From Candidatus Iainarchaeum sp. (lineage in GTDB: Archaea > Iainarchaeota > Iainarchaeia > Iainarchaeales > CSSED10-239): 7,652 nucleotides of DNA. This document shows, piece after piece, positions 1 to 7,652 of the stretch. Position 1 is the first letter of the stretch. Each line of letters opens with the position of its first letter. The stretch covers positions 1 to 7,652 of the forward strand of contig PWLL01000002.1 of assembly GCA_003559395.1 (NCBI GenBank), written 5' to 3'. The notes under the pieces were generated by a model. The model saw nothing but the letters and a program-made list of their open reading frames with translations, was not told the origin of the DNA and did not search any database. Made by a program: the position numbers and the translations under genes.

Positions 1-17
1 ATCTCTCCGTTCAGTTC

Positions 18-755
18 GTGGATGATGGTGTCATCTATGATCTGTACGGCAAGAACGGGATGCAAATGATCGGAACCGAAGGTCACACCAAGAACGAGAT
101 CTACGAACGCCTCACTGAAGGACTCCGCTCTTGCGACGAGTGTGGTCGTTGGACCGATGCAGGCGCGTACCCGGACTGGGTCAACGGCGTCTGTGAAGAA
201 TGCGATCCGAGCATCCTGGAAGACGAGCCAAGAGGGGACGACATGACCGAAGAAGATGCCGACCTTCACGAGCGCGACACGCTCCGCAGAACCAAGCCCA
301 TCGGGTACTTGGTCATGCGCGCGTGGGAGGAAGGCAAGCTCCGTTACCAGGATGCGAAGCCTGATCTCTTGAAGGAAGCTCTTCACCTGGATCTCAGGAC
401 CTCGATCGGGTCTGGGATCGAGTTCGGGTACGAGCCTTCCACCGATCTCGTTCGTTACGCGTGGCGGACCATCGATGGAGTGGAGGAGGACATCGATGGA
501 TTCATCCATGTGCTTGCCGATGCTGTCGGTGAAGATAGTCCACTCCGTGAGTACATCGTGACTGAGCTGACGACTGTGAGCGCAACCAGCGAAGATGACG
601 CGATCGAACGGGTCGTCAACCGGATCGGTAACCAGGAAGTCGTCGCTCAGGAAGCCGAGTTGACGGACGATGAGCTTCTGGAATATCCACGCCCTGACCC
701 ACTTCCGATGGGCGTCAAGCAGGCTGAGGAGAAGAATGATGACGACCAGGGATGA
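18..755 (+). CDS. Hypothetical acidic protein with a CxxC-x16-CxxC zinc ribbon; may be 5'-truncated by the window edge
   Basis: ORF 18..755 starts at GTG, but the frame stays open back to base 3, so the true start may lie upstream. Cys pairs CDEC (132-143) and CEEC (192-203) are 16 residues apart. The C-terminal half is rich in D/E. Stop TGA at 753-755. No family recognised. Confidence 0.6.
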   Translation: MDDGVIYDLYGKNGMQMIGTEGHTKNEIYERLTEGLRSCDECGRWTDAGAYPDWVNGVCEECDPSILEDEPRGDDMTEEDADLHERDTLRRTKPIGYLVMRAWEEGKLRYQDAKPDLLKEALHLDLRTSIGSGIEFGYEPSTDLVRYAWRTIDGVEEDIDGFIHVLADAVGEDSPLREYIVTELTTVSATSEDDAIERVVNRIGNQEVVAQEAELTDDELLEYPRPDPLPMGVKQAEEKNDDDQG

Positions 756-1194
756 ACTCAACGAGCTGGTTCTCTTCCACGAGGCATTCGCAGAAGAGAT
801 GGGATGGGAGCAGCCACCGGTCATGCTCGTGTCCGATCTCAAGGACCAGTTGATGATCTACATCTTGGCCGAGGGTCATCCCGCTGATGCTCTGAGGACC
901 CTGGAGCCCTTCGAGGATGTCAAGTGGGTCGTCTTGGTGTCTGAAGGATGGACATATCCCGAGTTCCTCATGGATCAGTACACCACTGAAGAGGGTGTCA
1001 GGAACCTCTACAAGTTGCAGCCTCCGTCTCAACATCCACAGCGGGTCGAGGTGCGTCACGTGGTTGGGGTTACACCCGATCATGTCGCGATGGCTCATCG
1101 AAGGCGTGGAGAGGAGCCTACGCTCTTCACTGACGACGAGGATGAGCTTGAAGGAAGAGTCACTGAACAGCTCGTCCGGATCGTAAGAGGATGA
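736..1194 (+). CDS. Hypothetical protein
   Basis: In-frame ATG ATG at 736/739 follows GAGGAG (726-731) and overlaps the upstream stop by 20 nt. The tracked start at 670 would lie deep inside the previous gene. Product starts MMTTRDELNELVLFHEAF; no motif recognised. Confidence 0.6.
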   Translation: MMTTRDELNELVLFHEAFAEEMGWEQPPVMLVSDLKDQLMIYILAEGHPADALRTLEPFEDVKWVVLVSEGWTYPEFLMDQYTTEEGVRNLYKLQPPSQHPQRVEVRHVVGVTPDHVAMAHRRRGEEPTLFTDDEDELEGRVTEQLVRIVRG

Positions 1195-1649
1195 AGGCTG
1201 TCATCATCGACATGGATGGGACGCTATGTGATGTGTCATCCATCCGTTACTTCGTCAACCCGGACCACCCTGATTTCCCAGGGTTCAAGGACTGGGAGTC
1301 GTTCCATGGCGGGGCGATCGATTGCCCGCCGAACGAGGAAGCGCTCACTGAGTACCGACGTGCGAAGGACGAGGGTCTTGCGATCCTCATCGTGACCGCG
1401 CGTATGGAGCAGTGGGCGCTTCCTACGTTGTTATGGCTTCGCGAGAACGACATCGAGCATGATGCTCTGTTCATGCGTGCCCAGAACGATTATCGTAAGG
1501 ACTACGTCATCAAGAGGGAGATCTTGGAAGAGATCAAGGAACAGGGCTATGAACCTGTCAGAGCCGTGGACGATAACCCTGCGGTCATCGAACTCTGGGA
1601 AGAGGAGGGGATCGAGACCATCAAGATCCCAGGTTGGGAGGAACAGTGA
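1191..1649 (+). CDS. HAD-superfamily phosphatase, polynucleotide 3'-phosphatase (Pnkp phosphatase domain)-like
   Basis: All four HAD motifs are in order: I IIDMDGTL (DxDGT), II LIVTAR, III basic RKDYVIKREIL, IV AVDDNP. The 152-aa size matches a capless stand-alone phosphatase domain. ATGA start/stop overlap with the upstream gene. Confidence 0.8.
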   Translation: MKAVIIDMDGTLCDVSSIRYFVNPDHPDFPGFKDWESFHGGAIDCPPNEEALTEYRRAKDEGLAILIVTARMEQWALPTLLWLRENDIEHDALFMRAQNDYRKDYVIKREILEEIKEQGYEPVRAVDDNPAVIELWEEEGIETIKIPGWEEQ

Positions 1650-1984
1650 ACTGGATGTTCTGGATCTGGCTTTTCCTTTGGATCGGTTGGGGGCAGAGCT
1701 TCGTTCGTTCTGTTCCTCCGATGGTGAGGTCGCGTAGATACGACAAGCGATCGAAGATCATCCTGGACAAGATGGTGGCTCATGCATCCGTTCTTGCTTC
1801 AGGTGTCAGCTCGATCGAAGAGCGAGAGCATCACGAGCGCGAGTTCGAGAACACAAGCGTTGCTCTCGACGCTGTCTTCGATCAATGGAAGATGGAGCTA
1901 GAACATGCGAGGAAGCTGAACAGACGCCAGTTCGTGTGGTTGGGATCCATGTTGCTGGTGTTGCTCTTCCTGCACATCACATAG
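1646..1984 (+). CDS. Small membrane protein with a Trp-rich N-terminal TM and a C-terminal TM
   Basis: GTG 1646 overlaps the upstream stop (GTGA) and follows GGGAGGAA (1636-1643). ATG 1655 is an alternative start. Hydrophobic segments are WMFWIWLFLWIGWG and FVWLGSMLLVLLFL, separated by a charged helical middle. Confidence 0.55.
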   Translation: MNWMFWIWLFLWIGWGQSFVRSVPPMVRSRRYDKRSKIILDKMVAHASVLASGVSSIEEREHHEREFENTSVALDAVFDQWKMELEHARKLNRRQFVWLGSMLLVLLFLHIT

Positions 1985-1995
1985 AGGAGAAGAAG

Positions 1996-3237
1996 ATGGG
2001 GAAGCCCCAGGAGAACCATATCAAGGCAGCCCGAGCTGTCTGGGAAGTCATGCAGAAGGAAGCAAGCTCACGAGGGATGGCTCTGTCGAAGAACAAGCAG
2101 TTCGGAGATGGCAGGGTCATCATCGGAGCCGTCAAGACGTTCATCAAGGTGCTCAACGACGAGCGTGGATGGAGGTTCAACGACACGGACTTCGATCTGG
2201 TCCGGTCGTACCTCAAGTCGACCGGGAACGTCGTCGTGCTTTCCAAGGTGGAGAAGTACCGCTACCGGATCTTCATCCGAGAGGAGTGGAACGAGACCCC
2301 TCTCGTGAAGGGGTCTCCGAAGGAGCCGGACTCGATCGATCGACGTGCGGAGAAGCTCACCGCCGATGAAGCAGGAGAGACACGCGAACCTGCTCCTGTC
2401 GAGTTCAAGTGCGTGAGGTGTGTCCCTCCTTCAGTCTGGGGTTCTCAGCCTGCTCTCAATGCGCACATGGCCTTGCACAAGAACGATCAGAAGAAAGAGA
2501 CGCCAAAGCCGAAGATCTACGCAGTGTCTCTTGGTGAGTCTCAGGCTGCGATCCTGACCGTGCTCCTCAAGAACGGCGGCATCGTTTCTCATGTCAAGGG
2601 TGCAACGACCCAGAAGATCGCGAGACAGGATCCTCGGCTTCGGGGCAAGACCAACCAGTCGCTCGGATCGACGATGATCAAGCTGGAGAACGATGGTCTG
2701 ATCACCAGGGATGTGCGTAAGAAGCGGACCTACCGGGTCGAGTTGACCGAGTATGGAAAAGAGGTTGCTGCCGATATCAACAGCTATCGCGCAGCTACTC
2801 AGGTCATCCTTGACTACCTCAAGGAGAACCCGGTGACCGAGTGGAACACCGCGACCATGAAAGATGATCTCGGGGCGTCCGCAGGAGTGGTACCTGATCG
2901 GGTGAGAAGAGCGCTGACCACTCTTGAACATGAGGGGGAGATCACCAGAGGGCAAGCGTCGATGAAGAAGACCCGTATCGTTCTCGCTGGTGCGGAGGGT
3001 CAAGTAGCTGAGCCAGTGAAGGACGCGGAGTCCTTGCCCGCTCCCTCTGGTTTGTTCGAAGAACTCGACGACGCGGTTCTCTTGACGATCTTGGAGAGGA
3101 GGCTCAACAGGAAGGAAGAGGTCGCTTCTTACAAGGAGAAGGTCGAGTTCATCGATTCGATCGTCAGTGAAGCCAACGACGGGAAGATCTCCCCGCTGAA
3201 GGCTCTGGCCGACATCCAGGAAGCGCTGAAGCTCTAG
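1996..3237 (+). CDS. DNA-binding protein: C2H2-like zinc finger followed by two MarR-like winged-helix domains and a C-terminal helical tail
   Basis: ATG 1996 follows GAGGAGAAGAAG and lies 11 nt after the upstream stop. Finger FKCVRC-x14-HMALH at 2404-2478. wHTH-1 is about 2536-2775 (ESQAAILTVLLKNGG..LENDGLITRDVRKKRTYRVELTEYG). wHTH-2 is about 2794-2986 (VILDYLKENP..LTTLEHEGEITRGQASMKKTRIVL). Confidence 0.75.
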   Translation: MGKPQENHIKAARAVWEVMQKEASSRGMALSKNKQFGDGRVIIGAVKTFIKVLNDERGWRFNDTDFDLVRSYLKSTGNVVVLSKVEKYRYRIFIREEWNETPLVKGSPKEPDSIDRRAEKLTADEAGETREPAPVEFKCVRCVPPSVWGSQPALNAHMALHKNDQKKETPKPKIYAVSLGESQAAILTVLLKNGGIVSHVKGATTQKIARQDPRLRGKTNQSLGSTMIKLENDGLITRDVRKKRTYRVELTEYGKEVAADINSYRAATQVILDYLKENPVTEWNTATMKDDLGASAGVVPDRVRRALTTLEHEGEITRGQASMKKTRIVLAGAEGQVAEPVKDAESLPAPSGLFEELDDAVLLTILERRLNRKEEVASYKEKVEFIDSIVSEANDGKISPLKALADIQEALKL

Positions 3238-3245
3238 GAGGAGCT

Positions 3246-3620
3246 ATGTCAGAAGAACTCGTGGACGAGATACTCACGAGACTCGATCGAGCAGGTGAGC
3301 TTGCAGGAGACGGGTTCGAGGTTCTGATCAGGCAGGTCTACCTCTCGGTCGTCACGGATGTCCTCTGGATGATCTTCCTGGGCGTGATCACAGCCTTCTT
3401 CGTCATCACGATCCGGCGTTGTGGCTACATGGGTGGAGAGCACCGGTGGCACGTCAACAAGGGGCCGTACAACGAGTCAAGGGAGCTTGCGGTGATCGGA
3501 TCATCGATCGGTCTCTTGCTCTCGACAGGCGTGATGTTCGCGCTCTTGATGGCTGTGATCCGCAAGCTGATCAACCCAGAGTTCTATGCCATCAGGTACA
3601 TCTTCCAGGCGGTGTCGTGA
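3246..3620 (+). CDS. Membrane protein, 2 predicted TM helices
   Basis: AGGAGGAG RBS (3236-3243) precedes ATG 3246. TM segments are VLWMIFLGVITAFFVITI and LAVIGSSIGLLLSTGVMFALLMAVI. Confidence 0.7.
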   Translation: MSEELVDEILTRLDRAGELAGDGFEVLIRQVYLSVVTDVLWMIFLGVITAFFVITIRRCGYMGGEHRWHVNKGPYNESRELAVIGSSIGLLLSTGVMFALLMAVIRKLINPEFYAIRYIFQAVS

Positions 3621-3769
3621 TGGTCGTCATCGTCGTTGCGTTCTTCGTCTCCTTCGTTGTACTCTTCCTGGGGCTCATGTTCATGGCACTGTTACTTGAA
3701 GCGTGGCCTCTTGTCGCGCTCCTAGTGCTGGTGTTCTGGGCTATGAGTAGAACGAAAGTGCCTCGCTAG
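3620..3769 (+). CDS. Very small (49 aa) hydrophobic membrane protein
   Basis: ATG 3620 shares one base with the upstream TGA (TGATG). Product MVVIVVAFFVSFVVLFLGLMFMALLLEAWPLVALLVLVFWAMSRTKVPR looks like a TM hairpin with a basic tail. The tracked start at 3419 would overlap the previous gene by 200 nt. Short length keeps confidence moderate. Confidence 0.5.
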   Translation: MVVIVVAFFVSFVVLFLGLMFMALLLEAWPLVALLVLVFWAMSRTKVPR

Positions 3770-3774
3770 GGGTA

Positions 3775-3803
3775 TTGCAAGATAGGGCGTTATGTGCTAG
3801 AAT
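3775..3803 (+). promoter_or_regulatory. Sigma70/SigA-type promoter with extended -10
   Basis: TTGCAA (3775-3780), a 17-nt spacer, then TGc-TAGAAT (TG 3795-3796, hexamer 3798-3803). It lies in the largest AT-richer gap of the window. Predicted TSS is about 3809-3811. Confidence 0.5.
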
Positions 3804-3828
3804 AGAGGGCGTCGGAAGAGGTATGCCC

Positions 3829-3866
3829 AAGGCCGGTACCAACAGGTACCGGCCTTTCCTCGTTTC
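3829..3866 (+). terminator. Rho-independent terminator hairpin
   Basis: GGCCGGTACC (3831-3840), AACA loop, GGTACCGGCC (3845-3854). The stem extends by AA/TT to 12 bp and is followed by TTTCCTCGTTTC. Confidence 0.6.
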
Positions 3867-3890
3867 GTGACGAGCCCACTAGGAGACCGG

Positions 3891-4511
3891 ATGACACTAG
3901 CAACTGATGTCATCGCATATCACGTGGATCTGAGCGATGAACTCTATCGTCTCAGGTTCGCCGAGGATTTCGCTGACTGGTTGATGGACCACCGCAGGGA
4001 AGAAGAGGCGCGTGAGTTCCTTCACCTGGTCAAGACGTACGAGGAGTCAACGGAGGAGTACGACCTTGAGGACGTGATCGCGATCGCCGAGGGGTTCAAC
4101 CCGATCGTCGATGTCAACGAGGAGATGGCCGGAGGCAGGAACGCTTCGGATCTCGCGATCCAGATCCTTGAGGAACAAGAAGGCAACCTGAGATGGGATC
4201 AGGAAGCTGCGTTGATCAACCAGTACATCCGTGATTCTGAGCCTGTCTCAGCAGTGCCACGGGATCTCCTCGAACCCGAGTTCCCGAACGTCGATGTGTA
4301 CTTCGATCTCAACCGACCGATCGTGCGCAACGTCCTCGGGATCCCGTTCCATCTCGCAGCCCATGGTCATCATCGCGGCGCGAGAGCGTTCATCCAGGAC
4401 ATGAAAGCCCTACTCAGGACCAAGCCGACGAACTACGCTCTGTTTCAGTTGGCTTGGTCTTACGTCATGATCTACCCAGATCCAGATCAGTACGGACAGG
4501 ACGATTGGTAA
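3891..4511 (+). CDS. Hypothetical, strongly acidic protein
   Basis: AGGAG (3881-3885) lies 5 nt upstream of ATG 3891. The tracked GTG 3867 sits in the terminator tail with no RBS. Hand count is about 41 D/E versus about 17 K/R in 206 aa. No motif recognised. Confidence 0.7.
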   Translation: MTLATDVIAYHVDLSDELYRLRFAEDFADWLMDHRREEEAREFLHLVKTYEESTEEYDLEDVIAIAEGFNPIVDVNEEMAGGRNASDLAIQILEEQEGNLRWDQEAALINQYIRDSEPVSAVPRDLLEPEFPNVDVYFDLNRPIVRNVLGIPFHLAAHGHHRGARAFIQDMKALLRTKPTNYALFQLAWSYVMIYPDPDQYGQDDW

Positions 4512-4547
4512 GCACCCGCGCACCGCGCACCAGCTAAGGAGAACGCC

Positions 4548-4868
4548 ATGGAGAAGGCAGCACCGGTCTATCCGCCACAGCCCGAGTCGATCGATGTCGA
4601 CATGACGACCGTGTACACGGTGATGTCGTTGTTGACCGTCTCGACCGTCGGGCTCGGGATCTCCACGACCTTGTTGTGGAGGAAGGCCCGGAAGAACGAG
4701 GAGTACATCACCGCTCTGGGGGACTACGTCTCGCGCCTGGTGAAGGACACCGAGTGCGGGAAGGTTGCTTACCAGACCTTCCTCGATGACGAGGAGGAGG
4801 ATGAGGTCGTCGTGTGGGACGACGAGAGCGGTTCGCCGTTCCCAACCGAGAGCCAGGAGGTTGAATGA
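4548..4868 (+). CDS. Single-pass membrane protein with an acidic C-terminal tail
   Basis: AAGGAG (4536-4541) precedes ATG 4548. TM segment is VYTVMSLLTVSTVGLGISTTLLW, followed by RKARK and then DDEEEDE. Stop overlaps the next start (ATGA). Confidence 0.7.
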   Translation: MEKAAPVYPPQPESIDVDMTTVYTVMSLLTVSTVGLGISTTLLWRKARKNEEYITALGDYVSRLVKDTECGKVAYQTFLDDEEEDEVVVWDDESGSPFPTESQEVE

Positions 4869-6748
4869 GCATCCTTGATGAGTTGATCCCGGATGCGTCC
4901 ATCGCTGAGGAGTATGTTGGGCGCAAGATACACGGAGGGCACGAAGACCTGGAGATCCTCGACTGGGCACGTCTGGTCGGGGACAACGTCCTGATCAAGG
5001 GACCGACCGGGCCAGGGAAGCGTCAGCCTCTCTCGATTCCTGTGTTGACCCCTCACGGCTGGACCACCAATGGTGATCTATCGATAGACGATGAGATCAT
5101 CGGACGGAACGGATGTCCGACCAAAGTCATCGGCCTTCATCCGATAGAGAAGGCTCTTGCATATCGGATCACCTTCAATGATGGCACGAGCACGCTCGCT
5201 GACGGTGATCATCTCTGGACCGTTCAGAGTCGTAAACAGCGCCGTACCACCGGCAGGTACCAGATCTTGACGACCAAGGAGATCCTTGACCGAGGGATCC
5301 TTGAGCATGGATCGGATCGTGCAACGTCCTACAACTGGTACCTGCCACTCGTAGACCCGATCCAGCACGACAAGGTCGAATTGGAGATCGAGCCGTACCT
5401 GCTCGGAGTCCTGCTCGCGAACGGATCGCTGACTGAGACCTCTGCGGTCTTCACAACCAACGACGAGTTCATCGCTGATCGTGTGCGTAGCGAGACCGAT
5501 GTCAACGAGACCACTCATGCAACTTCCACTGCGAAGCGATGGTTGGTCTACAACAAGGTTCCTGCGCTGAAAGATCTCGGTCTTTACGGTCTGAAGTCCA
5601 GGGAGAAGTTCATCCCCGATCACTACCTCGTGGCGCACGAGGACGCTCGTCGAGATCTTCTCGCCGGGTTGATGGACTGTGATGGGTCTTCTCGCGAGAA
5701 CCGACGTGATCGTTACTCCACCTTCAGCGTCCAACTGGCAGAAGGAGTGGCAAGTCTTGTTCGCTCGCTTGGTGGTGTTGCCAAGGTCTCAACCAGAGAC
5801 CGAAGCGACGGTGACATTGAGTACGAGGTCTCACTCTGGATGCCGGAGACTCCGTTCACTCTCCCAAGGAAGGCAGCACACTCCCCTGGCGAAGAGTGGT
5901 TCCGTGCCATCGCCTCCATCGAACCTGATGGTGACCGCGAGATGCGCTGCATCACCGTGGACGCAGATGACGGTCTGTATGTGATCGAGCATCACATCGT
6001 CACCCACAACACGATGCTGTGCCGTGCGTACTGTGCTGCGCGCGGTATCCCGTTCGTCAACATCAACCCTGGCACGGCGGTCGAGCCGTCGATGCTCACG
6101 GGGAAGGAGGTTCTGCGTTCAGCGTCGTCGTACTGGGTCGATGGGATCCTCACGGCGGCGCTTCGTCGTGGAGACGTGGTGATCCTCTTCGATGAGTTGA
6201 ACTTCTGGCCTCCAGGGGTGACGGGTTTCCTCCACTCGCTCACCGACGATCAGCGCTACATCTACCTCTACGATCATCTCGTGGAGTACGAGGACGAGGA
6301 AGGCAACAAGCAGGCGATGCCGGAGATCATCAAGGCTGCTCCTGACACGCTCATCGTCGCGGCCTACAACCCGCGCTACGAAGGGACGTTCCGCCCGAAC
6401 CAGGCGTTCGAGAACCGGTTCAACGTGCAGTTCAGGTGGGACTACTCGGAGAAGGTCGAGAACACCCTGATCTCGTTGCCGACGCTGAAGGCGATCGCGA
6501 AGGAGCTTCGGCGTATGCATGGCACCGGTGAGATCACGGTCCCGATCTCGACGAACAAGCTGATGCATTTCCAGAAGATGACCGATGATCTAGGATTGAC
6601 CGCAGCGATCGACAACTTCATGTCGTACTTCGATGGCTCCGAGCACGGTGCTGTCGAGAACGTCATGAACCTGAACCGGTCGCGTCTCAAGGAGGAGGTC
6701 AGGTCTGAGACGGGTGTCGATCCTGACAAGGGACGGTTCGTGAAGTAG
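4865..6748 (+). CDS. AAA+ ATPase of the MoxR/CobS (AAA_5) type, interrupted by an intein; predicted spliced product 297 aa
   Basis: AGGAGG (4855-4860) precedes ATG 4865. Walker A GPTGPGK (5000-5020) is completed by T at 6011-6013. Walker B VVILFDE is at 6176-6196. The AAYNPRYEGTFRPNQAFENRF segment matches the AAA_5 sensor/Arg region. Confidence 0.9.
   Translation: MSILDELIPDASIAEEYVGRKIHGGHEDLEILDWARLVGDNVLIKGPTGPGKRQPLSIPVLTPHGWTTNGDLSIDDEIIGRNGCPTKVIGLHPIEKALAYRITFNDGTSTLADGDHLWTVQSRKQRRTTGRYQILTTKEILDRGILEHGSDRATSYNWYLPLVDPIQHDKVELEIEPYLLGVLLANGSLTETSAVFTTNDEFIADRVRSETDVNETTHATSTAKRWLVYNKVPALKDLGLYGLKSREKFIPDHYLVAHEDARRDLLAGLMDCDGSSRENRRDRYSTFSVQLAEGVASLVRSLGGVAKVSTRDRSDGDIEYEVSLWMPETPFTLPRKAAHSPGEEWFRAIASIEPDGDREMRCITVDADDGLYVIEHHIVTHNTMLCRAYCAARGIPFVNINPGTAVEPSMLTGKEVLRSASSYWVDGILTAALRRGDVVILFDELNFWPPGVTGFLHSLTDDQRYIYLYDHLVEYEDEEGNKQAMPEIIKAAPDTLIVAAYNPRYEGTFRPNQAFENRFNVQFRWDYSEKVENTLISLPTLKAIAKELRRMHGTGEITVPISTNKLMHFQKMTDDLGLTAAIDNFMSYFDGSEHGAVENVMNLNRSRLKEEVRSETGVDPDKGRFVK
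5021..6010 (+). mobile_element. Intein (330 aa) with class 3 signature and a LAGLIDADG homing-endonuclease domain, inserted in the P-loop
   Basis: Removing 5021-6010 restores GPTGPGK|T. The C-terminus is THN followed by +1 Thr. Block A-like sequence is PVLTPHGWTTNGDLSIDDEIIG. Block B is ADGDHLW, with His at 5210 and Trp at 5216. Block F is MRCITVD, with Cys at 5948. Thr precedes HN at 6002. LAGLIDADG motifs are LLGVLLANGS (5399-5428) and LLAGLMDCDGS (5657-5689). Confidence 0.85.
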
Positions 6749-6825
6749 CACTGCTCGGAGTGATCCGAGAGCTGATGGGGTACTCCGCCCGCGATCGGCG
6801 CTCCTGTACTCCAGGGGCTCGTCAA

Positions 6826-6858
6826 GGAGGGGGGAGGTCTTCTCCGCCTCCCCCCTCC
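6826..6858. repeat. Perfect 12-bp G/C-rich inverted repeat (hairpin) in the ATPase-partner intergenic gap
   Basis: GGAGGGGGGAGG (6826-6837), 9-nt loop TCTTCTCCG, CCTCCCCCCTCC (6847-6858). No U-tract follows. The structure is seen directly; its function is unknown. Confidence 0.8.
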
Positions 6859-6880
6859 GATGAACCTTCGAAGGGGAACC

Positions 6881-7652
6881 ATGAGAGGGAAACTGACACA
6901 ACGACAGATCGACAACGTCAAGGATGTACGCAGGTATGGAGTGATCTCTGTTCTGGAGAAGACGAACAGGATCCTCGGATCGCAAGATTCGGTCGTCAAG
7001 GTCGAGTACGAGAACGGGATCCCGGCTCCAGCGATGACGGATGGCAAGAAGATCATCATCAACACGATGTATGAGCCGGTTCGCGGAGCGCTTGAGAAGG
7101 GGTTCGACCCATCGTCGATGATGATCGCGACGGGGTTGAACTACCACGAGCTTGCGCACTGTCTGTTCATGCCACGGATCACCTCGCCATACATCAAGAA
7201 GATCCGCGAGAAGGGCATGTTCGAGACGTGGAACATCCTCGAAGATCAGACGGACGAGACTCGGTTCGTGAAGCTCTATGAGCCTGCGAAGCACTACTTC
7301 TCTGCGCTCGTTTCGAACTTCATCATCGGCTCGGATGCGTTCACGGCAGGGTCGAACTACCTGCTCGTGTCCGGGCGGAGGTTCATCCCTCAGAGGATGA
7401 GACTCAAGCTGATGGACGACTTCTCTCATCCAGATCTGATCCCGGAGATCGATGCCCTGATAACCGAGTACAAGTCTCTGGTCTATCCAGATGATGAGGA
7501 TCGGATGTTCGAGGTCGTGACCGAGTTCCATGACCTGATCAGAGCTGTTCGACCACCGGACATGGGTGGGATCTTCCACGAGAACATCAGTGTTGGTCAG
7601 CCGAAGAAAGGGCTCTCCAAGGAGCTTCTCGAAGCCCCTGAACCTTCTTCAG
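6881..7652 (+). CDS. Metallopeptidase-like (HExxH) protein resembling the CobT/DUF2201 N-terminal domain; likely partner of the ATPase; 3'-partial
   Basis: I translated this frame by hand from ATG 6881 and found no stop to the window end. That explains its absence from the ORF track. AAGGGGA lies upstream. Motifs are AMTDGKKIIINT (7031-7066), HELAH (7145-7159) and WNILEDQTDETR (7229-7264). Alternative ATG at 6860 has no RBS. Confidence 0.8.
   Translation, partial: MRGKLTQRQIDNVKDVRRYGVISVLEKTNRILGSQDSVVKVEYENGIPAPAMTDGKKIIINTMYEPVRGALEKGFDPSSMMIATGLNYHELAHCLFMPRITSPYIKKIREKGMFETWNILEDQTDETRFVKLYEPAKHYFSALVSNFIIGSDAFTAGSNYLLVSGRRFIPQRMRLKLMDDFSHPDLIPEIDALITEYKSLVYPDDEDRMFEVVTEFHDLIRAVRPPDMGGIFHENISVGQPKKGLSKELLEAPEPSS

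Follow-up and report, generated by a model that had tools for sequence, protein, structure and literature searches.

The window analysed in the current research is a stretch of 7,652 nucleotides (contig PWLL01000002.1, positions 1 to 7,652), and its central feature is a gene for an ATPase of the AAA_5 family (4865-6748), recognized from the list of open reading frames (ORFs) and by translation as an uninterrupted ORF of 1884 nucleotides encoding 627 amino acids. This gene, the parts of it located below, the intergenic hairpin and the downstream partner gene lie on the forward strand. Its first 52 residues (4865-5020), which align with intein-less homologues, end in GPTGPGK (5000-5020), and residues 383-627 with the stop codon (6011-6748) begin with the Thr of the Walker A motif. 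The C-terminal part matched Pfam AAA_5 with an expect value (E) of 4.5e-9 (36.9 bits, the cut-off being 22), and the ATPase sequence matched PHROG 249 (E 6e-34). Between these two parts lies an in-frame insert of 990 nucleotides (5021-6010) that encodes 330 residues (R1-N330, or R53-N382 of the precursor; 37.1 kDa) with a nested LAGLIDADG endonuclease. Based on the sequence, we consider it very probable that the Walker A loop of the ATPase is interrupted between Lys52 and Thr by a mobile class 3-type intein. Public gene calls treat the gene as a single ATPase of 627 amino acids. The contig bearing the ATPase and its intein is an uncultured phage-like metagenome contig (ERZ27301261 k141_2289986, 35.5 kb).

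The insert separates GPTGPGK from TMLCRAY, and its excision joins them as GPTGPGK/TMLCRAY (here and below, a slash marks a splice junction). The Walker A consensus GxxxxGK[ST] is complete only once the insert is removed, and a Walker B motif of the type hhhhDE is present in the AAA_5 domain (VVILFDELN; 6176-6202). The spliced extein, computed after deletion of 5021-6010, has 297 amino acids (33.4 kDa) and contains GPTGPGKTMLCRAY. A search with this sequence recovered 35 intein-less proteins of 295-330 amino acids, 44-84% identical to it over about 100% of the query; 30 of them have 295-308 amino acids and are 71-84% identical. All 35 cross the junction without a gap, and almost all read GPTGPGKTMLCRAY, the rest being near variants. 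No gap opens at the junction either when the extein is aligned with the AAA-ATPases of two cultured phages, Gordonia phage UBSmoodge (GPTGSAKT) and Brevibacterium phage Cantare (GPSGAGKT). The junction was read from pairwise alignments of the spliced extein, as a five-sequence MAFFT alignment had scattered the short N-exteins into intein columns.

An allele with an empty site was found at the DNA level in contig L007, where a HAD/PNKP phosphatase, an AAA_5 ATPase of 298 amino acids, a protein of 600 amino acids and helix-turn-helix genes are syntenic with the window. In blastn, window positions 4866-5020 correspond to 6002-6156 of L007 and positions 6007-7484 to 6153-7623, so that the alignment stops at 5020 and restarts at 6007-6011. 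The intein-less homologues and the empty-site allele together fix the junction at K52/T383; with boundaries placed elsewhere, surplus residues would stay behind in the P-loop. The original prediction had placed a 990-nucleotide insert at 5021-6010, between the Lys and the Thr of Walker A, and had estimated about 33 kDa for the extein and about 37 kDa for the intein; translation bears out the insert and every residue position named, the junction is confirmed by the 35 homologues and the empty-site allele, and the computed masses are 33.4 and 37.1 kDa. It had also held that intein-less homologues continuing through the inserted region would speak against an intein, and no such homologue was found: all 35 lack the insert and have an unbroken P-loop. 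With a guanine-cytosine content of 56.3%, against 59.2% for the extein, the intein shows no clear foreign signature in its composition.

Class 3 inteins are defined by the lack of Ser, Thr or Cys at the N terminus and by Trp, Cys and Thr at positions B:12, F:4 and G:5 (Tori et al., 2010; PMC2807308); both the definition and the mechanism are also given in PMC7664689. They usually have Thr or Ser at position +1 and are found mostly in the P-loops of ATPases (PMC2807308). In the translated insert, block A (RQPLSIPVLTPHGW; 5021-5062) has Arg1 (CGT; 5021-5023) at position 1, so that no Cys, Ser or Thr nucleophile stands there. Block B (GTSTLADGDHLWTVQ; 5183-5227) contains Asp61 at B:7 (5201-5203), His64 at B:10 (5210-5212) and Trp66 at B:12 (5216-5218), while block F (REMRCITVDADDGLYV; 5936-5983) contains Cys310 at F:4 (5948-5950), the predicted initiating nucleophile. 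Block G (HHIVTHN/T; 5990-6013) comprises Thr328 at G:5 (6002-6004), His329, the terminal Asn330 (6008-6010) and Thr+1, the first residue of the C-extein (6011-6013). The Trp/Cys/Thr triplet is therefore present as W66, C310 and T328 and the +1 residue is Thr; the general features of HINT inteins, namely the block B His64, the C-terminal His329-Asn330, a +1 nucleophile and a HINT fold in the structure model, were found as well. At the sequence level, the earlier proposal of a class 3-type intein with Arg1, the triplet and HN followed by Thr agrees with the published definition in every respect (PMC2807308).

The prototype of this class is the intein of mycobacteriophage Bethlehem known as the “DnaB” intein (MP-Be DnaB; Tori et al., 2010; PMC2807308), in which the block F Cys320 is essential (PMC2807308). 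It was aligned by BLASTP with residues 4-330 of the insert (E 2e-25; about 27% identity), and its W67, C320 and T339 fall on W66, C310 and T328, with the His/Trp pair, the Cys at F:4 and the terminal THN in register. Both inteins have a non-nucleophilic residue 1, Thr at +1, a nested LAGLIDADG endonuclease and a phage host, and they are of similar size (341 amino acids in Bethlehem, 330 in the insert). They differ in residue 1 (Pro versus Arg), in B:7 (Ser versus Asp) and in the first LAGLIDADG motif, where Bethlehem has the canonical Asp (LGDG) and the insert has Asn. The insertion sites differ too, because the Bethlehem intein lies between VSQDQ and TKNTF in the 903-residue gp11 (AY500153) and not at a Walker A GK/T. 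We located the prototype intein (VSQDQ/P...THN/TKNTF) in the left-arm gene gp11 of AY500153 (L011 7260-9971), whereas the right arm of this record, where the “DnaB-like helicase” gp62 is annotated, yielded no prototype intein to either tblastn or a motif search. The record annotates the intein-bearing gp11 as a hypothetical protein, and gp62 is a protein of 273 amino acids without an intein. The historical name “DnaB” for the prototype intein seems to be a misnomer.

The insert also resembles the class 3 inteins Msm DnaBi1 and Mch DnaB1 of Mycobacterium smegmatis and M. chimaera. Msm DnaBi1 has a DxxH variant of block B with D62, H65 and W67 (PMC6195587), and the DxxH-x-W arrangement of these inteins (D61, H64 and W66 in the insert), the Cys at F:4 and the terminal T-H-N are shared by all three. 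The two mycobacterial inteins also lie within an ATPase P-loop (PMC6195587). Unlike the insert, they lack an endonuclease, being mini-inteins, they reside in the bacterial DnaB helicase, and their +1 residue is Ser. The insertion between the Lys and the Thr of a P-loop has been called a “classic” intein site, with the mycobacteriophage TerL1-a intein among the examples (Kelley et al., 2016; PMC5050341). The insert resembles these inteins in its Walker A Lys/Thr site, phage-borne location, sporadic occurrence and LAGLIDADG endonuclease; however, instead of a terminase or helicase it interrupts an AAA_5 ATPase of the MoxR/NorQ-like type that has a von Willebrand factor A (VWA) partner, and its source is an uncultured phage contig rather than a mycobacteriophage.

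The window segment 5000-6031 was modelled by AlphaFold2 with an alignment of 70 sequences, and this model had a mean predicted local distance difference test (pLDDT) score of 94.4 and a predicted template-modelling (pTM) score of 0.92. A Foldseek search against the PDB gave PI-SceI as the top match (E 4e-19; template-modelling score for the query, TMq, 0.69), followed by other intein endonucleases. PI-SceI (the Sce VMA1 intein; 1EF0/1VDE), the best whole-chain fold match, likewise combines HINT and LAGLIDADG domains within an ATPase, but it belongs to class 1 (Cys1, Cys+1), has an additional region for DNA recognition and is about 17% identical to the insert in sequence. The splicing domain matched MchDnaB1 and MsmDnaBi1 (template-modelling scores for the target, TMt, 0.83 and 0.78, respectively), and the middle domain matched I-DmoI. 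In a sequence search of the PDB, the closest entries were the class 3 inteins MchDnaB1 (6RIX/6RIY; E 2e-11) and MsmDnaBi1 (6BS8; E 7e-11). Sequence and model together describe an insert whose HINT splicing domain is divided in two by a homing endonuclease of the LAGLIDADG type.

The insert goes well past what chance would produce, as its relatives and the 35 gap-free homologues of the extein show. Using tblastn, we found 649 phage records with a relative, of which 621 cover at least 80% of the query, in genes for helicases, terminases, PhoH, primase-helicases and AAA proteins. The 120 best protein relatives (E from 8e-112 to about 1e-40, full-length relatives included) have as hosts DnaB, primase-helicase, AAA_24, RecA, RuvB-like, SNF2, DEAD helicase, PhoH and AAA_5 proteins. 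Each of the 120 was aligned to the junction-flanked query to count residues, position 1 being aligned in 111. The splicing residues are nearly invariant: His at B:10 in 120, Trp at B:12 in 119, Cys at F:4 in 119, Thr at G:5 in 117, His-Asn at G:6-G:7 in 118, and Thr (104) or Ser (12) at +1, i.e., 116 in all. Position -1 is Lys in 71 relatives, mostly the GK of a P-loop, while the 37 with Arg represent a second site, in PhoH. Of the 111 aligned at position 1, 108 have a residue there that is no nucleophile (Ala in 69, Gly in 24, Glu in 5, Arg in 4, Gln in 2, Pro in 2, Met in 1 and Asp in 1), the others having Cys (2) or Ser (1).

Related inteins occupy the same site in four metagenomic AAA_5 proteins (P0010, P0012, P0014 and P0017). 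The nearest relatives of the intein (47-55% identity) belong to DnaB-type helicases and AAA_24 proteins and not to AAA_5 proteins, which suggests transfer between P-loop genes. The intein is absent from all 35 extein homologues recovered, and such a sporadic distribution (0 of 35) is typical of a mobile element. At the DNA level, it was presumably brought in through homing by its endonuclease, or else moved ectopically out of another P-loop gene. The case lends support to the literature, in which class 3 inteins are seen as passing between phage P-loop NTPases.

The insert matched two Pfam endonuclease models above their cut-offs, LAGLIDADG_3 (30.4 bits) and Hom_end (26.3 bits). The first LAGLIDADG motif (YLLGVLLANGSL; intein residues 126-137; 5396-5431) reads LLANG at its end, with Asn134 at 5420-5422, and the second (DLLAGLMDCDGSS; residues 212-224; 5654-5692) keeps the catalytic Asp221. 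Both motifs and the matches to PI-SceI and I-DmoI correspond to the two-motif LAGLIDADG fold (alpha-beta-beta-alpha-beta-beta-alpha), so that by its modelled fold the domain is a member of this family. The catalytic acidic residue expected at the end of each motif is found in the second motif and replaced by Asn in the first. Among 118 relatives, the catalytic column has Asp in 82 and Asn in 33 at motif 1, and Asp in 116 at motif 2. Asn at motif 1 occurs in all 32 nearest relatives (38-55% identity) and Asp in 82 more distant ones. Because these 32 relatives reside in many host ATPase genes, we regard Asn134 as a trait of the lineage and not as a sign of decay. The Asn134 sublineage could be a nickase-like or otherwise atypical group of endonucleases.

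Four observations weigh against the assignment of the insert to a mobile class 3-type intein. Few relatives begin with Arg (4 of the 111 aligned at position 1); among these precedents are P0005 and P0006, which read GK/R. The splicing-domain models of Pfam and NCBIfam gave no significant match on the insert, where these databases revealed only endonuclease models and weak matches to intein-containing equivalogs, and the class assignment therefore rests on the homologue alignment, the PDB matches and the model. A single allele of the intein was found, as an identical protein on 4 contigs. Lastly, judged from the sequence of motif 1, with Asn134 in place of Asp, the present homing or double-strand cleavage activity of the endonuclease is in doubt.

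The splicing steps can be predicted from the characterised class 3 inteins of Bethlehem, Msm and Mch (PMC2807308, PMC7664689, PMC6195587). By analogy, after translation Cys310 would attack the peptide bond between Lys52 and Arg53 to form a thioester branch at block F, and the N-extein would then be transferred to the hydroxyl of Thr+1. Cyclisation of Asn330 would free the intein, and an O-to-N shift would yield the 297-residue ATPase with an intact GPTGPGKT P-loop, the predicted peptide at the ligated junction being GPTGPGKTMLCR. Before splicing, the precursor of 70.5 kDa should be without ATPase activity, the Lys and the Thr of its Walker A motif being 330 residues apart.

This expectation is the starting point of the idea that the intein is more than a selfish element and serves as an adaptive conditional switch; the original prediction spoke of a “gate.” The switch would keep the phage ATPase inactive until conditions allow splicing, for example in a redox- or metal-sensitive manner through Cys310. 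An insertion in the P-loop should block nucleotide binding before splicing, and an intein in the P-loop of RadA is cited in PMC6195587 as disrupting ATPase function. Moreover, the class 3 intein Msm DnaBi1 is reversibly inhibited by oxidation via its F:4 Cys (PMC6195587) and is described in PMC7360933 as reversibly inhibited by zinc; the insert has the same catalytic Cys together with Cys32, and further Cys residues stand at +4 and +8 in the extein. However, the regulatory redox partner of Msm DnaBi1, Cys48, is not conserved, the aligned residue of the insert being Ala. All 35 recovered extein homologues work without an intein, so that a gate would be dispensable, and the target choice of homing endonucleases is sufficient to explain insertion in conserved sites. 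Conditional control of this kind is a general hypothesis of the field (PMC6195587), for which the sequence of the window offers nothing specific, and we consider it unlikely here.

A broader scenario appears slightly less likely still. It would have a class 3 sublineage with the Asn motif spreading through the P-loops of many ATPases unrelated to one another (DnaB, RecA, RuvB-like, AAA_24 and two AAA_5 subfamilies) by nicking or atypical homing at a generic GK/T-coding site, with splicing through Cys310 serving as a redox or metal timer for the MoxR-VWA system.

The insert might instead be a decaying remnant that has lost splicing, which would make the ATPase gene effectively a pseudogene. The replacement of one catalytic Asp of the endonuclease by Asn could be read in this way, the splicing of the insert is itself predicted from the sequence and the model, and a precedent is documented in PMC3196547, which describes a class 3-like intein pseudogene in Arthrobacter (Arth_1007). 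Nevertheless, H64, W66, C310, T328, H329, N330 and Thr+1 are all intact, and the 1884-nucleotide ORF runs without interruption. Neither extein is truncated, and both share 71-84% identity with the nearest homologues that lack an intein; the modelled structure is confidently folded, and the Asn variant is common to the 32 nearest relatives across many host genes. In view of these features, decay is very improbable, and the reading of the insert as a class 3-type intein with intact splicing residues is preferred.

The notion that the boundaries lie elsewhere, for instance with a start at Ser5 of RQPLS, and that the insert is a standard intein of class 1 or else a bacterial intein-like domain, has in its favour the Ser four residues into the insert and the 3 of 111 triplet-bearing relatives that start with Cys or Ser, but it has a negligible chance of being correct: it would leave surplus residues in a P-loop whose junction is fixed at K52/T383, the alignment of block A puts Arg at position 1, bacterial intein-like domains are not found in conserved catalytic motifs with a following +1 nucleophile, and the start at Ser5 was rejected on the basis of the empty-site junction.

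Recognition of the class 3-type intein has practical value in annotation, since it gives the true product of 297 amino acids. Automated annotation had been expected to miss such an element, and it does so beyond this gene: GenBank phage records label intein-bearing genes only as “AAA domain protein” or “TerL.” The intein alone matches the PHROG families for the terminase large subunit (E 2e-31), DNA primase and DnaC-like helicase loader. Intein sequence has evidently entered these profiles, and any gene that bears an intein can receive a wrong label from them. Class 3 inteins in phage ATPases are already well documented (PMC5050341, PMC2807308), and the insert is an unannotated example of them; the finding changes no concept. 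With it, the hosts of class 3 inteins come to include a phage ATPase that is MoxR/NorQ-like and has a VWA partner, and another natural Arg1 variant is provided. A literature search for inteins together with MoxR returned incidental co-mentions only, in which the host family was not linked to inteins.

Judging from its sequence, the mature product of the interrupted gene is a phage AAA+ ATPase of the MoxR/NorQ/CobS-like type, paired with the VWA-domain protein encoded downstream. Homologues of the spliced extein carry the JGI names “NorQ” or “MoxR-like.” The partner gene starts at 6881 and runs past the end of the window (6881-7652), as seen in gene calls on the full contig L001, where it encodes 611 amino acids (12017-13849) with a C-terminal VWA domain (Pfam; 27.3 bits against a cut-off of 23.8). 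The same order, ATPase followed by VWA gene, occurs in L007 and in the Gordonia and Brevibacterium phages. In comparison with the AAA-ATPases of these two phages, the extein has an acidic insertion of 13 residues (LVEYEDEEGNKQA; 6269-6307; precursor residues about 469-481), which appears to be common to the close metagenomic homologues of 297-298 amino acids. Megablast of the whole ATPase gene against 50,697 phage records gave no match.

On the upstream side, the start codon of the ATPase gene overlaps the stop codon of an ORF of 106 amino acids (ATGA; 4865-4868), which suggests translational coupling between the two. Among the genes further upstream in the window, one encodes a phosphatase of the HAD/PNKP type (1191-1649; Pfam HAD_PNKP, E 7.5e-18), while several ORFs have no family match. 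Rfam and tRNA scans of the window revealed no RNA genes. The interval between the ATPase and VWA genes contains a GC-rich hairpin (6826-6858) with a perfect stem of 12 base pairs and a loop of 9 nucleotides; its arms are GGAGGGGGGAGG and CCTCCCCCCTCC, no T-run follows, and the intergenic stretch of 146 nucleotides that holds it has a folding z of -3.45. In the intein-less relative L007, a hairpin of different sequence stands at the equivalent position (6973-7004), and it therefore appears that the structure of this intergenic region, rather than its sequence, is conserved.

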